From contig JBNGIO010006348.1 in the NCBI GenBank assembly GCA_049999805.1, positions 571,402-591,401 of the forward strand: a DNA stretch of 20,000 nucleotides, read 5' to 3'. Under the pieces are notes generated by a model. That model searched no databases. It saw only the letters and a program-made list of their open reading frames with translations, and was not told the origin of the DNA. Below, piece after piece: positions 2,904 through 20,000 of the stretch. The position numbers were made by a program, and so were the translations under genes. This DNA comes from Folioceros fuciformis. Its lineage: Eukaryota. Position 1 is the first letter of the stretch; every line of letters begins with the position of its first letter.

Positions 2904-3600
2904 ATTCAGATAGAGCTTGATTTCTAACAAGTCCGCTATTGACGCCTGGGTACGGCAAGACAGACAGGCTATGCATATGCTAATCTTCGGATTAGACGAG
3001 GTTACCTTACACCATACTGATGGTGCCATAACCTCTGCTGAAGCTTGGAAGCAACTCATAGATATCTATCAATCTACTAATGTGATGACTCTTGTTACGG
3101 TACGTTTGGAGTTCTACTCATTACGTATGCAACCTAACGACATTGTTGCTCAGCACATAAGCAAGTTTAGGTATCTGCGCGCTCAACTTGCAGCACTTGG
3201 AATGGTAATCTCCGAATTTGATGCTGCGGTCCAGCTCTTAGCTAGCCTCCCGGCTAGTTATCAAACCTTTGTCTCATCCCAGAATCAGATGGTGAGAAAT
3301 GCTCACCAAGCTGTTAGGTCGGGCCAAGTCCCGAATATAATTGTGTCAGAGATTGCTGGAGCTCTCTTGCAAGAGGAGGCTGCCAGGTTCAATGTTGGCA
3401 CATCTTAATACGGGGGAGAAAGGGTCATGTTCGTGACCAACGATAGGTCATAATAGAATAAGAACAGGAGCTCTCAGGGATCTTCGGGTTCTTCCAAGTC
3501 TCCTAAGCGAGAGGGGACATGTCATTGGTGCCAAATGACTAGCCATTGGGAGAGAGAGTGTCGGAAGAAACAGGCTGGTGAGGCCCGCTAGGAGCTAAGG
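2904..3600 (+). pseudogene. gag: Second Ty1/copia gag lacking its N-terminus, with CCHC zinc knuckle
   Basis: ORF 2917-3408 (W..QDRQAMHML...SAEAWKQLIDIY...LRLEFYSLRM-like...HISKF...QLAALG..ISE....QLLASLPASY) is UBN2-like. The same frame continues through stops at 3406, 3451 and 3454 to CHWCQMTSHWEREC (C-x2-C-x4-H-x4-C) at 3520-3561. Confidence 0.88.
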
Positions 3601-6905: not shown

Positions 6906-7255
6906 AGAAACCCATGATGGCGTTGCGAGCTGAGTAGAGATACATAGACATACATATTTATGTCCATACGTGCCTGGCTTAAGCGAACGGACCATTGTCT
7001 ACTGTGTTCCACTCTTTATGTTCGCTTCAATGCCCGGCACGATGATGTGTAATGCTTGTGGGATTGACCTACCAGCCTGCAGGACGGTGCAACAACAGGA
7101 CGAAAGGCAGGATTCCTTACAACTATGCGGCTGTGCCGCTTCCTGTTACTTGTTCTCCGCTGTTGCTGCATTCGTGGGCTTATTCACGGCCATCCACAAT
7201 GCATCGGCTGATTTAAATAAATGATTTCCTCCAAAATTTGCTGTTGCTGTGTCCG

Positions 7256-9754
7256 ATGGGGTCCGTCTCGGTACAGGGTGGATTGCACCTGCATGGCGGG
7301 ACGGCTGGGGGAGAGAAATGCCTGTCGGTGAGGCTGGTTGTTCGGATGGCTTCCTTGCCTGGACCTCGCAAGGGCTTGGCGGCCAGAAATTCGTCTGGCT
7401 GGAAGGCGGTCACAGTGCGCCCTAGTTGGGTTGGATTCGGGGGGGAATGTAGGAAAGGGAGGGGACTGTGCACTGCGGCTGTTCTGCGGAATCCCCGAAG
7501 TCAGCAGGCAGGAGTGACGGTGGAGGCGAAGGAGGAATTGGAGGAGAGGCAGGAGGTGGTGAGGGATGGGGAGCAAACGATTATACCCAACATTTTGAGG
7601 ATTCTTAGGCCTGGCAAGTGGGATTCCGAGGTGGAGAGGACCTTGGCGGAGCTGGACCCCGACTTGAAGCCCCACCATGTGCGGCTGGTGATGCAGAAGG
7701 TGCAGGATGTGGATACTGCGTGGGGATTCTTTAACTGGGCGGGGACATTGCCGGACTACCAGCACACGGAGAGCACGTATGAGCCCATGTTGAGGCACCT
7801 TGGCTACTGCCTGAGGTTTGAGGAGATTTGCGAGCTGCTCAAGGTGATGGATCGGAAAGGGGAGGACGTGCAGAATTACATCTTCCGGATTGTGTTGAGA
7901 TTCGACAGGGAGAAGAATCCTAGCGGGGCGTATAAGGCCTTTTTGGCCCTGACGGGTTGTGGCCTGCAGCCCAGCTCGGTGGTGTGCAATTTTTTGCTCG
8001 GCACTCTGTCCAGACACGGGCTGCATCAGGGGTGCATCGAGGTTTATCACCACATGCTGGCGCGTGGCTTTGTTTTGGACCAGAGAGCGTACAACCGTCT
8101 CATCTACAGCTCCTACAAAGTGGGGTTTATGGATGAGGCGTACAAGCTGTACTTGGAGATGCGGAGGCTGGGTCTGGCTGTTTCCAAGTGGACTTATGTT
8201 GCTCTAATCAATGGTCTTGTGAAGGCAGGTCTTGTCTCTGAAGGCTATGCGATCTTCAAAGAGATGGAGTTGCCTCCGAATCTCCTTGTTTTCAATGGGT
8301 TGATACACGGCCTGGGGAAGGCGGGGCAGTTCAATGAGGCGCTGAGGCTGTTCGGCACCATGGAGGAGTCTGGTGTTTTCCCTGATGTTATTACGTATTC
8401 TACGCTTATGGATCAGCTCTGCAAATCTGGGAAGATCGATGAGGCCTGCGAGCTCTTTGCCGATATGAGGCGGAAAGGGATTCCTCCCAATCTTTTCACG
8501 TACAATGTTATGATTGGAGGGCTGAACAAGGCTGGTCGCCTCCTGGAAGCCACAGGACATTTTGAAGACATGTGTAAGGCAGGTATCTCTCCTGATGTCA
8601 TTACTTACAACTCCCTCATAGATGCAAATGGTAAAGCTGGTCAAATGTTTGAGGCCATAAAACTTTTTGTTGCGATGAGAAAATCTGGAGTCACTCCAGA
8701 CATGGTCACGTACAACAGTGTCATAAGTGGATTTGCAAAAGCGGGGCAATTGGAGCAGTCGTTTCAAACACTGGACATGATGCAGGAGAATGGAATTTAC
8801 CCCAACGCCGTTACGTACAACATTCTAATCTCAGCGCTTGCTAGGACTGGACAGGTAGACCAAGCGCAAGTTATATTGGATGCTATGGCAGAAGCAGGGG
8901 TTCAGCCAAATGTTATCACTTACACGGCCTTGATCGATGGCTTGGGTAAGGCTGGTCAGCCCTCGACTGCTCTGGAGGTTTTCAACAGTCTAAAGGACAA
9001 ACCGATAGCCCCCAATGCAGTATGTTACAGTACAATCATTGGTGTGCTTTGCAAAGCAGGGCAGTATGAGGAGGCTCACAGCATTTTTGAAGACATGAAC
9101 AAGAATGGAGTTGTGCCTGATGCGGTTGCGTTTGGGACACTCATTGTTGGTTTTGGTAAAGGCGGTCAAGTAGATAAGGCTTGTTCTCTGTTTGATGAAA
9201 TGAGGCGAAGAGGTCTTGTTACAGGAGTATTTTCGTATAATGTACTCATTGGTGTGCTCAGCCGCGATGGGCAGATAGAGGAGGCTTTGAGCATTTTCAG
9301 GGATTTGGGTCAGCAAGGCTTACAACCAGATGCTATCACCTACAATACCCTGATAGATGGGCTTGGTAAGGTGGGGCGGTTAGACGAAGCTTGCAAGCTT
9401 TTGAACGAGATGAAGGAACAGAATATGTCAGGGGATGTGGTTTCGTACAGTTCTTTGATCGACAGTCTCGGCAAATTTGGCCAGATTGATAAGGCATACC
9501 AGTTGTTCAAGGATATGCAAGCCGAAGGTCTCAGCCCAAATGTGATAACGTTCTCGTCGCTGATAGATGCCTTTGCCAGGTCCGGACGATTGGATGAAGC
9601 TTGTGTTCTGTTTGAAGAGATGAAAGAGAAGGGGCTTCTTCCGAACGAGATCACGTATGCCAACATCATCAACGGGTTTAACAAGGCTGGTCAAACAAGG
9701 AAAGCGAAGGAGTTCACAGAACGGGAAATGAACCAAGATGTTTTCTTCGTATGA
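7256..9754 (+). CDS. P-class pentatricopeptide repeat protein (~832 aa, ~19 repeats), intronless, probable organellar transit peptide
   Basis: Long ORF with consecutive 35-aa repeats such as PDVITYNSLIDANGKAGQMFEAIKLFVAMRKSGVT, and no E/DYW or SMR domain. The first ATG is 7256 (the ORF-track start at 7238 is TTG). The N-terminus is R/S/G/A-rich with few acidic residues. An alternative ATG lies at 7346. Confidence 0.95.
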   Translation: MGSVSVQGGLHLHGGTAGGEKCLSVRLVVRMASLPGPRKGLAARNSSGWKAVTVRPSWVGFGGECRKGRGLCTAAVLRNPRSQQAGVTVEAKEELEERQEVVRDGEQTIIPNILRILRPGKWDSEVERTLAELDPDLKPHHVRLVMQKVQDVDTAWGFFNWAGTLPDYQHTESTYEPMLRHLGYCLRFEEICELLKVMDRKGEDVQNYIFRIVLRFDREKNPSGAYKAFLALTGCGLQPSSVVCNFLLGTLSRHGLHQGCIEVYHHMLARGFVLDQRAYNRLIYSSYKVGFMDEAYKLYLEMRRLGLAVSKWTYVALINGLVKAGLVSEGYAIFKEMELPPNLLVFNGLIHGLGKAGQFNEALRLFGTMEESGVFPDVITYSTLMDQLCKSGKIDEACELFADMRRKGIPPNLFTYNVMIGGLNKAGRLLEATGHFEDMCKAGISPDVITYNSLIDANGKAGQMFEAIKLFVAMRKSGVTPDMVTYNSVISGFAKAGQLEQSFQTLDMMQENGIYPNAVTYNILISALARTGQVDQAQVILDAMAEAGVQPNVITYTALIDGLGKAGQPSTALEVFNSLKDKPIAPNAVCYSTIIGVLCKAGQYEEAHSIFEDMNKNGVVPDAVAFGTLIVGFGKGGQVDKACSLFDEMRRRGLVTGVFSYNVLIGVLSRDGQIEEALSIFRDLGQQGLQPDAITYNTLIDGLGKVGRLDEACKLLNEMKEQNMSGDVVSYSSLIDSLGKFGQIDKAYQLFKDMQAEGLSPNVITFSSLIDAFARSGRLDEACVLFEEMKEKGLLPNEITYANIINGFNKAGQTRKAKEFTEREMNQDVFFV

Positions 9755-10412
9755 GATACAGCTCCGCTAAACATGTGGATGCGGATGTGTGGGAGTGAGC
9801 TGTTGATGCTCCAGGGGGTCTCTGATGCTTACTGCTGCGCAAGGCTCTCGATCACTGAACTAGAGTTTAGTCAGGTTGTCTTGCTAACTATCCCTCGGGC
9901 GGGGATCTTGTTCAGGGAAACCTGCATGGTATGTATATTAATCATCTCATTGTAGGCACGTGCTCTCTCGAGCACCTGCGTGGAGTGGAACCTGGTGAAT
10001 CTTAAATTCACTTTGTATCTTCTGTCGGGCTTTGAATGTGATCTACTACGAAGTAGCAGCTCACGTAGGGAGATACTCGAGGATGAGGCACACAGAGGCG
10101 ATGACGAAGTTTTGTGATTTCGGGTGAAGTTGAGGATACTCTCGGCATGCATCTGCTCTTAGAGAGTGTCGGCGTTATGTCCGAACCAACTCAAAGGTAT
10201 GAAGTATCTGGTCAATGACGAAGTCTGAGCGTGAAGAGCGTCCGCTCACATATTGGGTATTTCGTAGTCTGAAAAAAGTGTAACAGCCGGTGAACAGGCA
10301 CTTCTGAGAGGCCATGTTAATCTGAATGGCTCGATTCCAGTGCAATCCACATGAACGCCAAACAGCGTCATTCCCAGGCCCTGACATCCCGAGGAAGTGT
10401 AACGTAGCTGTC

Positions 10413-13400
10413 TTAATTGTCATCACCGCAAGAGCATGCCCCTTCTTTGAAATGATGGACACGGTGAGCATCCCTCACGATGATCTCTCGTTTTTCAATG
10501 CTAGAGATAATTTTGGTGCCGCTGTGGCAGTGAAGGCACATTTTGAGGTTCTTGGTCACCAGCAGAGTGCTGCCTTCAGGAGTGTTGAGAAGGCCGAAGG
10601 CTACAGCAAGTTTTTCAGCATGTCCACAAAGAGCATCTTCCTTCTCCTTCTCAGACAGCGATTCCAGGAATAAGTCCATTTGTGGGCCATGGCCGCCCAG
10701 TGTAAGCTGCTGATTCAGGCTCCTTAGCTTCGCTCCTGTATCATCCCTGTTTGATCCCACGGTGAATTCGTGCACCTGGTTATTGACTTCTATCGAAGCT
10801 GAGGCAAACTTCTTCTCGGCACCAGCCCATTTTCTCAAATTTTCTATGTCATCTACATCCTGCCACCTCCCTACCTCAGAATACATGTCAGACATGAGAG
10901 CATAGCACGAGGCATGCTGAGGTTCCATTTGCACAAGCCGGTCAAAGCACCGCCTTCCGACCTCGATGGTATGATATGTTCTGCTGGCGCTGAGCAAACA
11001 TCTCCAGCCGACGCTGTTTTGTGCAAATGGCATTGTTTCCAGCATTAGCTCAGCCTCGTCCAATCGGCCGGACCTGCCGAGGAGATCAACCATGCAGGTG
11101 TAGTGATCAACGCCTGGAACGAGGCCATAAGTCTCTACCATCATTCTGAAGTACTTCTGCCCCTTCTCCACCAGTCCCACATGACTGCACGCTACGAGAA
11201 GACATAGAAAGGTTGCTGCATCCGGGACAACTCCCTGTAGTTGCATTTTGTCAAAGCACTGCATTGCCTTGTCACACCTGTTGTGCTGTCCAAAGCCATT
11301 GATCAGGGCAGTCCAAGTCACCACGTCTCTCTTTGACATTCCGTCGAATACTGATTGAGCCTCCTCCAGGCTCCCACACTTTGCATACATGTCGACTAGG
11401 CTGTTTGCCACAATGAGATCTACTAGCAGCCCCTTCTCCACAACTTGTGTGTGTACCCGCTTGCCCTCCTGGATCGCCCCCACACTGCCACATGCCTTCA
11501 GAATATTCACAAACGTAGTCACATTGGGCACCACCCCTTCCTGCTGCATTCTTGCAAACAGTGTGAAGGCTTCCTGGCCAACACAATGCTGGGCATATCC
11601 TGCAATCATGCTGTTCCAAGTGATAACATCTTTGGACGTCATTGTATCAAACACTCTGCGGGCATCCTCCAGGCTCCCGCACTTCACAAACATTTCCAGG
11701 AGGCTATTCTTTATTAGCAAGTCTTCAACAAGTCCCAAATCCAAGAGCTGGGCATAGATCCGTTTGCCATCCTGCAGAGCACCTGTGTTGCCACATGCCT
11801 TCAGAATGCTTAAAAACGTTACGCTGTCAGGTCTGTTCCCATCCTCCTGCATGCTCGTGAGGAGTTGAAGAGCCGCAAGAGTATGTCCGTGCTGGGCATA
11901 GCCTGAAATCATGGCACTCCAGGTTACAGTATCTCTTGCTGGTAATCTATCAAACACTTTCCTGGCATCTACAAGGCTACCGCACTTGACGTACATGTCC
12001 ATTAAGGCACTGCCCACAAAACCATCAGTCTCAAGTCCTATTTCCACTATCTGAGCATGGATCTGTCTGCCTTCGTTTATGGCTCGGGCACTGGTACAAG
12101 CCTTCAACACGCTCAAAAACGTAGCTTTGTCTGGAGTTATTCTGTCTTCGCGCATCCCTGCAAACACCTTAAGGGCTTCTTCACCGAGCCCCTGACTAGC
12201 ATATCCTGTAATGATGGTGTTCCACGTTACTACGTTCTTGGAGGACATTCTGTCAAACATCCTTCGCGCATCCTCCAAGCTCCCACATTTTGCATACATG
12301 TTCAGGAGAGCACTCCCAACAAAAACGTTTGACTCAAACCCGTTATCAGTTACATCAGCATGCACTAGTTGTCCGGATTTCAGATCTATGGCCATGGTAC
12401 AGGCTTTAAGGACAGTCACATACAGGTACGAATCCGCTCGAATACCAGATTTTCGCATGCGGTCATAGAGCTTTATAGCATGCTCAGCTTGCCCATGCTC
12501 AGCATGCGCTGAGATGATTGAAGTCCATACAAATGCAGTTGGGGCGGCCAACTTCATAAACACTTCATCTGCCTCATTTAGGCTTCCCAATGTAGCGTAC
12601 ATACGAACGAGGTGATTTGCCAGAAACGTGTTGGTCTCATATCCACGTCTCACAGTAAGATTATGAACTCGCCGTCCGACTGGCAAATTCTTCTGTACTA
12701 TGCACCCCTTTATAAGACAGTATATCATCTCCCTGGTGATGAAAGTTCCTTCCTCAGCCATCAGATCCACAGCTTCAAAAGCCTTAAACACCTCGCCATC
12801 TTCACAAAGTTTTCTCCATGGAATAGAGCGCAAAGAATTGCACACATCCACGCTGCGAGGCAAGCAGGTTAGGACAAGGAAGTGCGGAGGCGGCTAAGTC
12901 AGAGAACCCGAAATCCCCCTGAAGAGTATTACTGCAAAACTGTCGAGAGCTGTAGAAGAAACTGCACCTCACAGGTTCAACCCCCGATGAAACACCAGAA
13001 GGCAATGGAACTGAATTTGGTACTCTAGATGGCTTCTGCTGCCGAAGGCCCATGTCCTTTACCCATCCAACTTCTAACTTAAACCGCTGGCCTTCGTCCA
13101 CGAAGGTCAGGTCCGCGAGGGGTCTCTGCAGAATTTCTCAGGCTCGTTACTAAGATCTCTATGCCATATAACCCACGTTCCATCAGCGAAGAACGAATCT
13201 TACCTTGCTCGGGCTATTTCCCCTCCATCCTCGCAATGCATTTTGATCATCTGGAAGCCAAACCAAGTTCCGAGGTCAGAAAATCAACGTGAGCTGGGCA
13301 AGCCAAATGAAAGCATACAGACCACTCACCCAGGGTGCTTCCAAGCTTCTGGCCTTCGGAATGATCTCGGAGACTGGAGAAGCTTAGGTACCCTTCTTCC

Positions 13401-13477
13401 TTGGGCAGGAAAGAACGGGATTTGATTAGCATTTGACAGGTTCCGGCCACATGGCGGAAGGACCCAACTATCCTCAT
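10413..13477 (-). CDS. PLS-class PPR with E1-E2-DYW:KP-type domain (candidate U-to-C RNA editing factor), ~930 aa; exons 13477-13330, 13250-13204, 13125-12968, 12852-10413
   Basis: The main exon encodes L-S-(P-L-S)x4-P2-L2-S2 (17 repeats), E1, E2, then KKFASASIEV...GHAEKLA...KNLKMCLHCH...HHFKEGACSCGDDN. The ORF-track start is TTG inside a CTAAC...CAG acceptor. Three upstream GT-AG introns (79, 78, 115 nt) join in frame to MRIVGSFRHVAGTCQMLIKSRSF. The main exon is near certain; the 5' exons are moderately supported. Confidence 0.9.
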
Positions 13478-13768
13478 TTGAGCAGCTCATTTGCGTTGCA
13501 ATCAGTGTCTGATACAATGGGCTGGACAGCTCCGGCTCAAAGAACGTAGAAATGGAACTCGCGCATACTGTCTGGAGCAGACGCAGCATTAGTGAGGCCA
13601 CCAGTTGCGGTGATGGAACCCGGATGGCGAGTTGAGCATCTTGGTCGGAACAGAACTCGTGCACTCTTGACACATCTCATCTTCTTCCAGCATGATCATT
13701 TCAGAAAGGATTCGGCTTCTTCATTTGCAGCGTGTTAACACTGCAGATGGTTTGGAGCGTTGTGACGA
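13478..13768. promoter_or_regulatory. Putative bidirectional promoter and 5'UTR interval between the divergent DYW:KP genes
   Basis: There are 291 bp between the predicted ATGs at 13477 (-) and 13769 (+). The call comes from gene geometry only; no convincing TATA box was seen. Confidence 0.45.
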
Positions 13769-16700
13769 ATGAAGACCTGTTTGAAGCAACGGAAATTCAT
13801 CGCTTGTCTTCCTGCGGAGGCATGGTGCAGGCGGCAATCAAGTATGCAGAGTCGCGTGAAGCGTAGGCAAATCTGTGGGCATTGATCCTCCGGTTGTTGC
13901 TCCTGTCGTAAATTCTTAGGACCTCACCGTTCCAGCTGGCTTGCAGATGACCTGGACAAGAACAACGCAGTTGTGAACATATCATTTGCTGATCCATCGC
14001 AGTTTTGGAACAGGAGGTCGGGCAAGGTGAATTGGTTTAGGTCTTAGCTGTCTCCCAATCTCTTTTGGAAGGTGTTGCCTGGTCGTTAGGTGGCAGTTGA
14101 CCCTGGGTGATCACCACAGACAGAGCTCAAGCATCTAGACTTCGTGCACAGGACAACAAACGATGGGTTGTGGCTGGACTCATTGTCAGTTCCCACCAGC
14201 AAATCGAGGAATACATTATCTGCTGGTGCGGCATCTATCCGAGAAGATGGAGGCCATGCTGGTGCAGCATCTATCCGGGAAGATGGAGGTCTTGCTGGAG
14301 ACCATCCGCATGCCGTCAGGTATGTTCACAGTGTGCACTCCTTTAGGTGTGGAGAGACTGAACTTCTAGCCTTCTTGCCACCACCGTTCCTAAATTGCGC
14401 TGTTTGATTTTGAATTTCAAGGAGGGCATGTAGGGGTGCAAGGGCTGAAGGTCCTTCAGGAGCTTGGAGCAGTTTTTATAAGACGGGACAGGTTGATGAG
14501 GTATTCCAAGCTTTGGACCTCATGCACCGGGAGGGCCTTGTGGTTTCTGTAGACTTGTTGTACCAGCTCCTCAAATGGTGCATTGCACAGAAGGACCAGG
14601 CTGCTGGGAGACGTGTCCATGCCATCACTGTGAGGAATGGGCATGAGGCAAACGCATTTCTGGGGAACCACATTATTCGCATGTATGCATCTCACGGGGA
14701 GTTGCAGAAAGCGAGTGAAGTCTTCCGCAAACTTCAACCCCCCAATGTATTTGCTTGGAGTGCAATTATCTCGGCCCATGTGGATCATGGGAAAGCAACG
14801 CGGGCTATAGAATTGTATAAGCAACTGCGGCAAACACCGGTGCCGCCTGATGACTATACCCTCGTTGCTGTTCTCAAAGCCTGTGCAAGTTCGTCGGATT
14901 TGACATCAGGAAAGCTAGTTCATGGTGATGTGGTGAAGAATGGATCCGAGTCTAATGTGTTCGTTGGTAACACATTAGTCGACATGTATTGTAAGTGTGG
15001 GAGTCTGGAGGATGCTCGCACAGTGTTTGATAAGCTCCAGACCAGAGATGTGGTGACATGGAATGCAATGATTGCTGGGTATTCTCTTCATGGGAATTGG
15101 CAGGAGGTCTTCAAGTTGTTTCAAGAAATGCAAGAGCAAAGTTTCACGCCAGATGATGTCACATTCGTCACCATTTTGAAAGCGTGTGCTAGCACGGGAA
15201 ATGTTCAGTTCGGCAGGCAAGCTCACAAGGACCTTGTGACTTGGGGAGCGGTGGCACATATCTCTGTGAGAAGTGCACTGGTGGACATGTATGCCAAGTG
15301 CCAGAGCCTTGAGGAGGCAAGAACAGTCTTTGATAGCATGCGAACAAAAGACGGTCCGATATGGAGTGCCATGATTGCAGGATATGCTCAGCATGGCTCG
15401 GGGGAAGAAGCCCTCAGGCTTTATTCAAAAATGCGGCAGGATGGCATAACTGCTAAAAAGGCCACTGTTGTCCACATCCTCAAAGTGTGTGGGACTTTGG
15501 GATGTATATTGGATGGCAAGGCTGTGCACTCCGACATCATGGAAATGAGACTAGAAGCCGATGTGTTCGTCGGGAGTGCTTTGATTGACATGTATTGTGA
15601 ATGTGGAGCCGTGGTGGATGCTCAAGCAGTGTTTGATGGACTCCCAACCAGAGATATAGCAGTTTGGAATACCCTGATCTCAGGATATGCGCACCAAGGA
15701 CTTGGTGAAGAGGCTCTCAATGTTTATCACAGGATGTTGCAAGAGGGCGTGACACCAGACAAGCTTACCTTTGTAAGCGTTCTCAACGCGTGCGCTTGTG
15801 TAGGAGCCATACATGAGGGCAAGTGGATCCATACCCAGGTGTTAAAACGTGGACTTCAGGTGGATCTCTTCGTTGCGAGCACCTTGATGGACATGTATGC
15901 CAAGTGCGGGAACCTGAACGATGCTCACAAAGTGTTCGAAAGTTTGCCCAGAAGAAATGTGGTAGCATGGAATATTATGATCGCAGCATACGGTCAACAA
16001 GGGTTGGGAGCCACGGCCCTCAAACTGTATACAACCATGCAACATGATGGTATCGTGCCAGACAAGGTCACGTTTGTTACCAGTCTTCGAGCGTGTGGCA
16101 GCACTAAGGCTGTTCAAATGGGCAAGCAAATTCACTCACAAATTGTGGAAAGAGGGCTAGAATCAGACATGTTTGTTGTAAGTGCCCTTATGGACATGTA
16201 CGGAAAATGCGGGTGTCCTAGGGATGCCCGCAAGGTGTTTGACAGCTTGCGGGCACGTGACGTTGTGGCATGGAACATAATCTGTGCAGCATACGCGCAA
16301 AATGGGCTTGGTCGGGATGCCATTCAACTTTTCAAAAGCATGCAGCTGGATAACATTACACCAGATCAGACCACGTTTGTGACAGTTCTCAAGGCATGTT
16401 CAAGCACTGGGGCGATACAGGAAGGGCAGCAAATTCATTCCCAGATTGTCGGAAGAGGACTTGAAGCTGATACCGTTGTCGGGAATGCCCTCATAGATAT
16501 GTACACCACCTTTGGGAGACTGGAGGAGGCTCGACAGGTCTTTGAAACAGTGCCAGCCAAGGATATAGTGACATGGAGTGTTATGATCGCTGGATATGCT
16601 CAACATGGCCTTGGTCAGGAGGCCCTTGCACTCAACAGGAAGATGCAGCGGAGTGGTGTGATCCCAAACAACAGTGTCATCTTTGCAGGCCTTCTGAAAG

Positions 16701-17791
16701 CATGTTGCAGCGTCGGCGCCTTACAGGAGGGAAGGCGGACACATGCGCAGATTCTTGAGCAGGGGATGGAAGAAGATTTGTTTGTTGCAAGCACCCTGGT
16801 AGACATGTATGTGAGGTGTGGGAATCTAGAGGATGCACAGACAGTTTTCGACCGTTTGCCATGTAAAGACGTTGTGGCATGGACTGCTCTGATCAATGGA
16901 TATGGCCGGCACCACGACTGGAAGACGGCATTGGGATTATTTGACAGGATGCAAGAACAGGACTTGGAGCCCGACTCTGCAACTTTCACATCGCTGCTCT
17001 CAAGCTGCAGCCATCTGGGCTTGGTTGCGGAGGGTCAGAAGTATTTCAGGATGATGGAGGATTGTCACTCCATCACGCAGACTGTAGAACATTACACGGC
17101 GATGGTGGATCTGCTTGGCAGGGCAGGTCTGTTTGATGAAGCTCAAAGTCTGTTAGGATATACCCCCTTGTCAGGGCTCGGTGCGGGATGGAGGGCTTTG
17201 CTAAGCGCTTGCAAGAAGTTCTGCAACGTGGAACTCGGAAGGTTGTGTTTTAATCGGCTCGTGGAAATGGAACCTGAACAGGCTGTTGCGTACGTGTTAA
17301 TGTCAAGCATCTATGAGAATGCAGACAGGTGGGAGGACGTTGATGTCATTAAGAAGATGAGAAAGCGGGCAGGTGCGAACAAAATGCCAGCACTGGCGTC
17401 CATTCAGGTGGATGGTAAGGTGCATGAGTTCGTTGTGGGCGATAAAGGATTCCAGCAAGCAGATGATGTTTACAGCAAGTTGATGAGTTTGAATGAGCGG
17501 ATGAAGGAGGAAGGGCATGTGGCCCATACCGGCCCGGTACTGGAACCAGTGTCTGAAGCTGAAAGAGAGGAGGCTCTGTGCGGGCATGCTGAGAAGCTAG
17601 CTATAGCTTATGGTCTTCTGAATACACGAGAAGGCACACCCTTGTTAGTCGTTAAGAATCTGAGGATGTGCCAGCATTGTCACGACGGCAGCAAGTTCAT
17701 CTCAAGGACTGAAGGGCGTGAAATAGTAGTTAGAGATGCTCATTGTGTGCACCATTTCAAGGACGGCTTTTGTTCTTGCGGAGATCAATAA
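13769..17791 (+). CDS. PLS-class PPR with E1-E2-DYW:KP-type domain (candidate U-to-C RNA editing factor), ~1240-1247 aa; exons 13769-13862 (or -13841), 13947-14026, 14120-14319, 14422-17791
   Basis: The main exon encodes L-S-(P-L-S)x7-P2-L2-S2 (26 repeats), E1, E2, then KMPALASIQV...GHAEKLA...KNLRMCQHCH...HHFKDGFCSCGDQ. The frame is open upstream of the TTG ORF start back to the acceptor at 14421. Three GT-AG introns join in frame to the basic leader MKTCLKQRKFIACLPAEAWCRRQSS. The main exon is near certain; the first exon is the least certain. Confidence 0.9.
14221..14298 (+). repeat. In-frame 36-bp tandem duplication in predicted exon 3 (AGAASIREDGGH / AGAASIREDGGL)
   Basis: Units at 14221-14256 and 14257-14292, plus a partial TGCTGG. 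Confidence 0.92.
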
Positions 17792-17861
17792 TCTTCTACC
17801 TTCCTGTGCTTGTGAGAGTAGTCCGGGATTGACTGTGTACCTGTGTTTCATGCCACCAACC

Positions 17862-20000
17862 TCAAGGAAACGGGCCTCGCAGCAAGCCATACGCAGACAC
17901 GTAGTGCTCCTTCTCCGCCTTCTCTTTGAGGAGGCGACGTGAAGGCTCTGCTGAGCCTTCCCCCGTCCGACCGCTGTGATCACTGTCGTCCGCAATGCGC
18001 ATGGGCGCTTGAAGGCGTGATTCCAGATTGCGAACAACTCCCTCCGGATTTCTGCTGAACGCCTGCCACACTACAAAGTTGGTGCGAAAATGGATGAAAA
18101 GACTTTGATTCCTTAGCTTCCAGAGCGAGGACTCACCGCGATATTTGCCGCATCCGACACTACTTTAAGGCGAGTATAGTCCATCAAATAGTTCTTCTTG
18201 CTGCGCGCTTCGTTCGCCATGCTGCTACTGGCCTCCATACTCTTGATCTTTATGTTGGCGGCTCCTAGTTCCGCTAATGCTGTCTGATGATCATCCCATC
18301 AAGACGGAAACATCTTCTTGCTGTGCTCAGGCGAGTCATGCCAAACACCTGACATACCATCAAATTACCTGCAGGCTGCTCTCCGCTATTTGCAGGCTAC
18401 GCACTTTTTGAGCGATGTCCATACCAAGTGCTTTGACAGTGACACTGTGACTGTTTCTCTCGGCTTGCAAGTTGTTCCTTTCTAGACATTCACCAGCAAT
18501 GTTATGTCTAAGCTCCATCCCACTTTGGAATACGTCAATACAAAACTGCTGTCAGTCAGGTGGGTTTGGGACCTCCGTACCAACCTGCACACACCCTTTT
18601 GTATGCTTCATGGCCCTGAGATAGAGCGTCTTCCAGCTTCCCAATTTGACGTTGTGAACGAGCTAGGTCTTCTTTCGTCCTTGCAGCGTCGAAAGCGTTG
18701 GCTTTCAATCTCTCCGCATCAGCCTCCAGTGCTCTTAATTTCTGCTGTAGTTTCGCCACCTCTTCTGAAGCCGCTTGCAGCTCTGCCGTCCTGCCAACTT
18801 ATTTGAAAACACCACAAGTTCAGCAAGTAGCATTTCAATTCATGCTGTAGCTGTGTCCAATCACGGAAACCAGCCATTCAAGGGTTTTCTGGTAATCACT
18901 CAGTTCCTCTGACGGCCGCTTGTTTGAATCCGTAGCGTCGTTAAGTTCCTTCAACAGTTGATTATACGACTACAGCACAATGACCTGCCCGTATCAGTCA
19001 CCTACCCGTTCAAAGAATCAAATGCGCAAGGCAGTTGTACGCACGCACCTGTCCGCCTTGACGACATACACTCACCTGTGTACACAGTTCCAAAAAGTTG
19101 AATAATGAACCTGAGCGTTTGCAGCCTCGTCTTCGGCATGCTTCGTTCTCAATCTAGCAAGCTCAGCCTCGGCTTCTTGGTCCTTTTTTATCAACTCCCC
19201 TTTGCAATTTCTATTTTCCTTCTCTAAAGCAGCAACACTAGCTTCCAGTGCTGACACTTTGCTGTTAGAAGCTTCTAACTCCTTCTGTAATTGTTCAGCT
19301 TTTTGGCGAAGGGCTTCAGCATCTTTGTGAAGTTGCTCAGCGGCTAGTTTCTGTCTCGCCGCGATTTCTTCTGAATCCTGTCGTGCTTTGTTCAGTTCAT
19401 CCTGCAGTTTTTGGATCGTAGCAGCATAGCTATCTGCTTTTTCTGATGCCTGCCTCAGAGCTTCCTTCATCTTTGCCAGATCTTCCTGGAGACGGGACCT
19501 TTCCTCAGCAGCAGAGCTGGCAGCCTTCTCCATTTGTTCCTTAAACTTAGCAAGCTCTTCCTGGAGGCGGGATCGTTCCTCGGCAGCAGTGCTAACAGAC
19601 TTCTGCAGCTGTTCAGCTAAATTCTTAAGCTTCTCCTCGAGGGCCGCGTTCTGTTCCTGAGCTTTGACCAATTCACCAGTGAACCTCCTCACTTCAGACT
19701 CGTCTTTGCTCCTTTGTTCTCCCATGCTCTCCTGGTTCTTCAATGCTTGTGCCAACTGGGACTTTCCATCTGCAACATCCGACAGCAGCTTATCTCTCTC
19801 GGTCACGAGCGCCTGCAGCTTGGCTTCCAATGAAGCAATTTGGCCCTTCGATTTGTTTAATTCATCAGACTCTTTGCCCCTTTGCTCCGCCAAGTTCTTC
19901 AATGCCTGTGTCAACTGGCTCTTCAGAGCCGCAATCTCCGCCTGCAGCTGGTTCCTCTCTGCCACAAGCGCCTGCGTCGCTGCTTCAGCTTCAGCCAACT
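17862..20000 (-). CDS. 3' part of a long coiled-coil protein gene, family not recognised; exons >20000-19111, 18969-~18871, ~18790-18585, 18481-18369, 18283-18137, 18062-17862
   Basis: E/K/Q/A/L-rich heptad sequence continues across GT-AG introns (ANAQ|SYNQLLKEL; YKRVCA|ERNNLQAE; ESSLQ|TALAEL; ANIA|AFSRNP...RGPFP*). The phase of the junction between ~18871 and ~18790 could not be resolved. The 5' end is outside the window. Confidence 0.8.
19461..19970 (-). repeat. Intragenic repeats in the coiled-coil exon (75-nt and 159-nt periods)
   Basis: S(T/S)AAEERSRLQE(E/D)LAKxKE occurs twice (TCTTCCTGGAG at 19481 and 19556). LVxER...KSQLxQALKN occurs twice (TTCTTCAATGC at 19736 and 19895). Confidence 0.85.

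Follow-up and report, generated by a model that had tools for sequence, protein, structure and literature searches.

The stretch of DNA considered here, called the window, comprises 20,000 nucleotides from Folioceros fuciformis (NCBI GenBank assembly GCA_049999805.1, contig JBNGIO010006348.1, positions 571,402 to 591,401 of the forward strand), and the gene in question lies on its minus strand, where an uninterrupted open reading frame (ORF) of 816 codons (10413-12863) encodes a pentatricopeptide repeat (PPR) protein with a DYW:KP-type deaminase domain at its C-terminus. A Pfam search on this ORF returned many PPR repeats together with E_motif (E=9.4e-12, residues 630-685) and DYW_deaminase (E=2.3e-33, residues 724-814), matches that are far beyond chance. 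Translation of 10413-10814 on the minus strand gives 133 residues followed by a stop; this domain starts with KKFASASIEV, ends with GDDN and contains the segment VHEFTVGSNRDD, HAEKLA, a CxxCH motif (CLHCH), HHF and CSC. Translation and alignment hence confirmed the features that an earlier sequence-only reading had listed for this segment, from KKFASASIEV through VHEFTVGSNRDD, HAEKLA and the HxE, CxxC, HHF and CSC motifs to the terminal GDDN.

The gene extends beyond this ORF. Indeed, the ORF listing used bacterial start codons, and since the sole in-frame ATG (codon 35) lies inside the first PPR-like motif, the true start must be upstream. Contigs of four public runs (X1, X3, X4 and X10) were mapped on 9800-18000; the kind of each run (DNA or RNA) was only guessed, and transcription was judged by spliced versus collinear contigs. 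In run X1 (same organism, guessed DNA), contigs are collinear with the window over 12272-12934 and 12921-13752. In run X3 (same organism, guessed RNA, 0 mismatches), a 1100-nucleotide contig is made of the pieces 12272-12852 and 13330-13643 with 205 unlisted letters between them. Run X4, from another organism, repeats this pattern, its collinear piece ending at 12851 and resuming at 13330, and a contig of run X10 (also another organism) joins 12851 straight to 12967-13125. The 205 letters of X3 equal the sum of a 158-nucleotide and a 47-nucleotide exon, and the three skipped intervals all have GT..AG boundaries (Table 1); the two middle exon boundaries are set by this arithmetic and by the splice sites, not by a listed alignment. 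Splicing these three intervals out leaves the main frame uninterrupted over 933 codons; it reaches back to an ATG at 13477, from which a protein of about 930 residues would be made. Because the contigs of X3, X4 and X10 skip GT..AG intervals that are present in the DNA run X1, the frame staying open throughout, we read them as a sign of transcription and splicing of this gene. The X3 contig, which extends upstream to at least 13643, carries four short upstream ORFs before the ATG. A pseudogene was also considered and judged unlikely in view of the intact ORF, the spliced contigs and the open spliced frame.

In the encoded protein, a PLS-type PPR array leads into E1, E2 and the DYW-family domain, and according to Pfam and motif tiling these parts together occupy residues 9 to 816. 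P, L and S motifs of 35, 35 and 31 residues, P2, L2 and S2 motifs of 35, 36 and 32 residues and E1 and E2 motifs of 34 and 33 residues tile residues 9-683 exactly. Applied to the fifth and the final residue of each P and S motif, the PPR code predicts as target Y? G n A U n G G n U Y n U G n A at positions -19 to -4, with the edited base at 0; the register, with S2 at -4, agrees with the excerpted text of PMC13324415. The motif boundaries were assigned manually on the basis of consensus motif lengths.

The KP group was reportedly defined by Gutmann et al. in 2020. DYW:KP editing factors are found in hornworts, lycophytes and ferns (PMC13386178, in excerpt), and in the available sections of PMC11845758 the K-P region is described as defining the subclass, with Ala or Cys in place of the Ser that follows the zinc-binding His. 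For the placement of the window domain, a pool of 273 sequences from protein searches was reduced to 212 rows whose domain match covers both ends, the window domain and that of a paralogous gene in the window being included; the 61 sequences dropped were fragments or had long tails. By labels of our own, which are not curated, 44 rows with HAE and Met92 were called KP, 136 rows with P-G and HSE were called PG, and 32 rows were left as other. Home-made profiles, built from the 136 PG rows and from 42 KP rows without the two of the window, scored the window domain at 215.3 bits for KP versus 159.2 for PG, and at 203.6 versus 156.3 bits when the five label positions were masked to X. A tree was computed with IQ-TREE from 114 rows of a set of 198, comprising each of the 69 non-PG rows of that set and 45 of its 129 PG rows (139 columns), with a bootstrap that had not fully settled. 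In this tree (support as ultrafast bootstrap/SH-aLRT) the window domain forms a clade with the sequences P0002 and P0005 (100/89) within a group of 36 rows, each of them KP (100/94), and the KP side is parted from the PG side at 100/99. The terminal branch of the window domain is short (0.14 versus a median of 0.24). A 29-row group that contains it includes rows ending in DRH or GRP, the two hornwort variants of the KP domain in the excerpted account of PMC9478123, and on this ground a hornwort source was considered probable.

The window domain displays the traits of its group, that is HAE and not HSE, Met92, 132 residues without xHP, and an Asp-led ending other than DYW. The KP-type call made in the sequence-only reading is thus borne out by the profiles, the tree, HAE and Met92; profile scoring and phylogeny, two of the checks that it had proposed, both went to KP, and no clustering with PG or WW types was seen. 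Since the proline of K-P is lacking, as it is in 10 of the 44 clade members, the domain was filed through clade and profile and not through the motif: the segment at 10416-10814 is a proline-less member of the KP clade and not a textbook KP domain.

The residues required for zinc binding and catalysis are kept. Past a 4-residue gap, the number of a residue in the window domain plus 827 gives its number in OTP86, whose zinc ligands and gating domain (H837-G891) are taken from excerpts of PMC7611903. H65, C93 and C96 align with the Zn1 ligands H892, C920 and C923 of OTP86, and H97, H120, C127 and C129 with the Zn2 ligands H924, H947, C954 and C956, so that all seven zinc ligands are present; E67 aligns with the catalytic E894 and K88 with K915. 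The gating domain of OTP86 corresponds to H15-G64 of the window domain. Positions 88-93 read K-N-L-K-M-C, and Lys88 is found in all 44 KP rows; because it also occurs in 134 of the 136 PG rows, Met92 alone of the Lys88/Met92 pair discriminates KP from PG. Column 95 reads D in 34, H in 7 and another residue in 3 of the 44 KP rows, and the seven rows with His are those of the window domain (codon 10530-10532, minus strand), its paralog and five relatives. His95 may mark a KP subgroup.

Structural comparisons are in line with these alignments. Sequence matches in the PDB were obtained with the synthetic PPR-DYW protein 9kfx (E=2.8e-37), with DYW1 (7w86, 1.1e-32) and with OTP86 (7o4e, 2.6e-27), with a four-residue gap after VHEFTVGSNR, and this search of PDB sequences returned no KP-type structure. 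An AlphaFold2 model computed from 17 sequences has a mean predicted local distance difference test (pLDDT) score of 85.4, and Foldseek matched it to the RNA-bound PPR-DYW structure 9kfx_A with a TMq of 0.89. Alignment, model and Foldseek match agree on a cytidine-deaminase fold with the gating insertion and both zinc sites.

Three traits of the domain had been flagged as unusual: a shortened gating segment, the DDN terminus, and Phe in place of the name-giving proline. They mostly prove to be normal variation of the KP family, and only Phe-for-Pro holds as unusual. The four-residue shortening relative to the paralog is real, as BLASTP against 14513-17791 places the gap directly after VHEFTVG, inside the gating domain. 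The window domain is 132 residues long when the count begins at the Lys of the pair; 13 of the 44 KP rows share this length and 14 have 133, so that the 132/133-residue form is found in 27 of the 44, and 99 of the 136 PG rows have 136. Most KP domains are without the xHP residues in the excerpted text of PMC9478123, and domains of 132 and 133 residues were used in designer work (PMC11845758, from its section 4). The short gating segment is thus the norm of the family and the longer paralog the exception. The DDN terminus fares no better as an oddity: there are 32 kinds of final triplets in the 44 KP rows, of which DRH is found in nine rows, four more in two rows each and all the rest in a single row, and DDL, DDS and DDT resemble DDN; the diversity of C-terminal endings in KP proteins is also pointed out in the introduction of PMC11845758.

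The claim for the phenylalanine stands in part. Phe occupies the proline column in one of the 44 KP rows (P 34, A 4, L 2, V 1, I 1, R 1, F 1) and in two PG-type rows, P0158 and P0215; against its singularity, the proline is absent from 10 of the 44, and the two closest relatives carry Leu. As these two Leu rows, P0002 and P0005, are exactly the sister rows of the window domain, the proline was probably lost once, in the common ancestor of the three domains. In the AlphaFold2 model, the Phe lies just before strand 1; the PG box occupies strands 1 and 2 of the deaminase fold (PMC7611903, in excerpt). The phenylalanine would be a lineage-specific substitution, of the same kind as the leucine of the two nearest relatives, and is expected to be tolerated.

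Comparison with relatives and with known systems places the window protein more precisely. Of the two nearest relatives, both from public assemblies, P0002 is 74% identical over the domain; over the E-DYW region the identities are 67% for P0002 and 62% for P0005, a level of paralogs and not of orthologues. All three domains are proline-less, share His95 and have an Asp-led ending other than DYW, and they differ in the Leu that P0002 and P0005 carry where the window domain has Phe, and in the length of P0005, shorter by four more residues. No orthologue above 70% identity was found among near-length proteins (104 matches from 958 candidates) or shorter ones (21 from 277). The first named matches are a lycophyte protein (55% identity), which is not KP by our labels, and a fern KP protein (48%), and the Protein Atlas matches are DYW/E clusters labelled 'Streptophyta' only. 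Among the differences listed for organisms B and C (at least three in 10404-10644), one at 10419 is synonymous, in the last Asp codon.

The paralog at 14513-17791 (plus strand), a divergent neighbour with 49% identity over 785 residues, is itself of the DYW:KP type (HAE, Lys88, Met92) and has a 5' intron of the same phase at a similar place; it differs by M-P for K-P, four extra residues after VHEFxVG, a longer PPR array (1092 codons) and a GDQ ending one residue short. With the solved DYW:PG domains (OTP86 7o4e/7o4f, DYW1 7w86 and 9kfx), the window domain shares the fold and the positions of the zinc ligands, Glu and Lys (E from 2.8e-37 to 2.6e-27, TMq from 0.73 to 0.89), whereas PG-type domains catalyse C-to-U editing and carry P-G and HSE, a Val in the column of Met92, a gating region longer by four residues and a DYW ending. 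Of the known systems, the designer proteins KP2 and KP3, mainly derived from the hornwort GRP variant (PMC9478123, in excerpt), and KP6, of fern type, have the same type of domain. They have in common with the window protein HAE, Lys88, Met92, about 133 residues without xHP, an ending other than DYW and the P2-L2-S2-E1-E2-DYW architecture. In contrast, they are consensus designs with K-P, and the window protein is the product of a natural gene with K-F that ends in DDN and not in GRP.

Considering these data, we find it likely that the protein encoded at 10413-12863 (minus strand) is a nuclear PLS-class PPR protein of the DYW:KP subgroup, made from a spliced mRNA and presumed to be an organelle U-to-C editor. 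The product of the four-exon mRNA would presumably be imported into an organelle and recognize one RNA site through its 18 PPR motifs, and Lys88 would attack C4 of a uridine, the base leaving as cytidine, as proposed for designer KP proteins (PMC11332814, in excerpt, for the lysine attack on C4). The designer proteins KP2, KP3 and KP6 do perform U-to-C editing (PMC9478123, PMC11845758), and Lys88 is essential in designer KP proteins for this editing and for an RNA-protein crosslink, according to the available text of PMC11845758. By analogy with them, we infer for the window protein the activity of the 'natural reverse-editing enzyme' that had been proposed from its sequence. Several points weigh against this interpretation. 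The introduction of PMC11845758 calls the activity of natural KP proteins unknown, and our literature searches on KP proteins found no assay of a natural one. Only three of seven designer KP proteins edited in the excerpted account of PMC9478123, and KP6 also edits C-to-U, with single substitutions flipping its direction (PMC11845758, in excerpt). In the domain itself, the Lys of K-P is present and the Pro is replaced by Phe, and Lys91 stands for Arg, as in 3 of the 44 KP rows, at the position that aligns with R568, an interface residue of the consensus PPR-DYW structure (PMC13324415, from the sections available).

The direction of editing is where the closest alternative lies, namely a protein that is KP-type by descent, yet edits C-to-U or in both directions in vivo, which we regard as unlikely. 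KP6 does both reactions and is pushed to C-to-U by E64G, L113V and F133H (PMC11845758, in excerpt), and Gly64 and Val113, which favoured C-to-U in KP6, are found in the window domain as well. These two residues are, however, the KP consensus toward which KP6 was mutated, and three residues that favour U-to-C, Thr17, Ala116 and Val119, are likewise present in the window domain; anchored on Lys88, all five of these KP6-tuning positions match the family consensus. As the consensus residues include states pushing KP6 either way, the KP6 data do not predict the direction. The presence of Lys88, required for U-to-C, speaks for the reverse reaction, as does the report that KP2 and KP3, of mainly hornwort GRP origin, had no C-to-U activity in bacteria, as far as the excerpted PMC9478123 goes.

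Rather improbable, in our judgement, is a domain that is catalytically dead or decaying, whether the protein is an RNA binder only or a redundant paralog being lost. Large PPR families contain many redundant members, the loss of the name-giving Pro and the change of Arg91 to Lys could be symptoms of decay, and no close orthologue turned up in the protein databases searched, as stated above. Against decay, the 816-codon ORF is intact, the frame is kept over three introns, spliced contigs occur in runs of three organisms, the zinc ligands, Glu67 and Lys88 are all in place, and the terminal branch is short. That the domain could be a PG- or WW-type C-to-U deaminase with a chance likeness to KP was considered and rejected as hardly credible. 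Its PG profile score is also high, and KP and PG types do not differ in fold or zinc sites, but the KP profile is ahead by 56 bits (47 with the label positions masked), the tree puts the domain within the all-KP group with the PG side split off, and HAE, Met92, the length and the ending all point the same way.

Within the KP clade, a further idea is that the window protein and its nearest relatives constitute a third KP subtype, which would join the DRH and GRP variants in the hornwort-like group. The window domain indeed falls in a 10-row tree group (93/84) apart from the rows ending in DRH or GRP, the latter being the variant that underlies KP2 and KP3. In this group, several rows have His for Asp in C-x-D-C-H, the endings are Asp-led (including DDx, DHx, DKL, DNH and DSI) and the proline is lost in the innermost three rows. 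We hold such a subtype to be doubtful. If it did exist and were functionally distinct, for example in the nucleotides preferred beside the edited base, in the way the Lys88-RNA intermediate is released or in the direction of editing, a natural enzyme with Phe or Leu for Pro would make an informative counterpart to the designer KP proteins.

Table 1. Features of the DYW:KP gene and of its deaminase domain (positions in the window)
Feature	Position	Strand	Evidence
First coding exon, first in-frame ATG 13477-13475	13330..13477	-	Spliced frame
Intron, 79 nucleotides, GT..AG	13251..13329	-	X3 and X4 pieces resume at 13330
Exon, 47 nucleotides (inferred)	13204..13250	-	205 unlisted X3 letters = 158 + 47, and splice sites
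Intron, 78 nucleotides, GT..AG (inferred)	13126..13203	-	205 unlisted X3 letters = 158 + 47
Exon, 158 nucleotides, frame open	12968..13125	-	X10 piece 12967-13125; AG precedes 13125
Intron, 115 nucleotides, GT..AG	12853..12967	-	X10 joins 12851 to 12967; X1 collinear across
Last, main exon	10413..12852	-	X3 piece ends at 12852; X4 and X10 pieces end at 12851
PPR array P-L-S-(P-L-S)x4-P2-L2-S2, 18 motifs without gaps	11016..12839	-	Pfam PPR families, length tiling
E1 (34 residues) and E2 (33 residues) motifs	10815..11015	-	Pfam E_motif, motif tiling
DYW:KP deaminase domain, 133 residues as first cut (132 from the Lys of the K-F pair)	10416..10814	-	Translation, Pfam, PDB matches, AlphaFold2, Foldseek
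TTT codon, Phe at the name-giving proline position	10806..10808	-	DNA read
Gating domain H15-G64, with the 4-residue gap near its start	10623..10772	-	Alignments to 7o4e, 9kfx and paralog; OTP86 gating domain
H-A-E: Zn1 ligand His65, Ala66 (Ser in PG type), catalytic Glu67	10614..10622	-	Alignment, OTP86 H892/E894
AAG codon of Lys88	10551..10553	-	DNA read; column alignment
C93-L-H-C96-H97: two Zn1 ligands and one Zn2 ligand, His95 for the usual Asp	10524..10538	-	Alignment
Stop codon TAA after the final Asn	10413..10415	-	Translation

In the surroundings of the gene, three PPR genes lie in about 10.5 kb of the window. The paralog gene (14422-17791, plus strand) is arranged head to head with the KP gene. 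Its upstream exon ends at 14319 and is separated from the main one by a 102-nucleotide intron (14320-14421, GT..AG), of the same phase and at approximately the same place as the last intron of the KP gene; as the frame of this upstream exon is without ATG, there is at least one further 5' exon. At 14221-14298, the 5' exon of the paralog contains 2.2 copies of a 36-nucleotide tandem repeat (90% matches), coding for a unit of 12 residues in duplicate, and a contig from organism C has small deletions at 14203-14231. A 5017-nucleotide contig of run X4 spans the 5' parts of both divergent genes (12272-12851, 13330-13864 and 14422-17871), which reflects either a 5' overlap of both transcripts or a join made by the assembler. 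The summed contig depth rises 20- to 100-fold at 11170-11443, 12266-12539 and 15006-15279, where there are many mutual joints, some on opposite strands; these spikes are assembly cross-talk from PPR-motif words common to the gene family and not a feature of the KP gene. Tail to tail with the latter lies an intact P-class PPR gene (7238-9754, plus strand), with 838 codons from a TTG and about 15 PPR_2 repeats (E=4.7e-198). Further away, a 163-codon ORF at 2917-3408 (plus strand) matches Retrotran_gag_2 (4.5e-27), the gag of copia-type long terminal repeat retrotransposons, and is probably a retroelement fragment. Near the end of the window, a 308-codon ORF (19072-19998, minus strand) is rich in Ala, Glu, Lys and Gln and has weak Pfam matches of the coiled-coil type, all below the cut-offs.

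The gene described here is one among a large family, and with two of its three flagged traits being the norm of that family, it will be no surprise to a specialist. U-to-C editing has so far been demonstrated solely with consensus-designed KP proteins, and it is because the activity of natural ones is unknown (PMC11845758) that this gene is useful as a natural test case. Intact, transcribed and equipped with a defined PPR array, it can be put to use for this purpose, and its phenylalanine offers a test of whether the name-giving proline matters.

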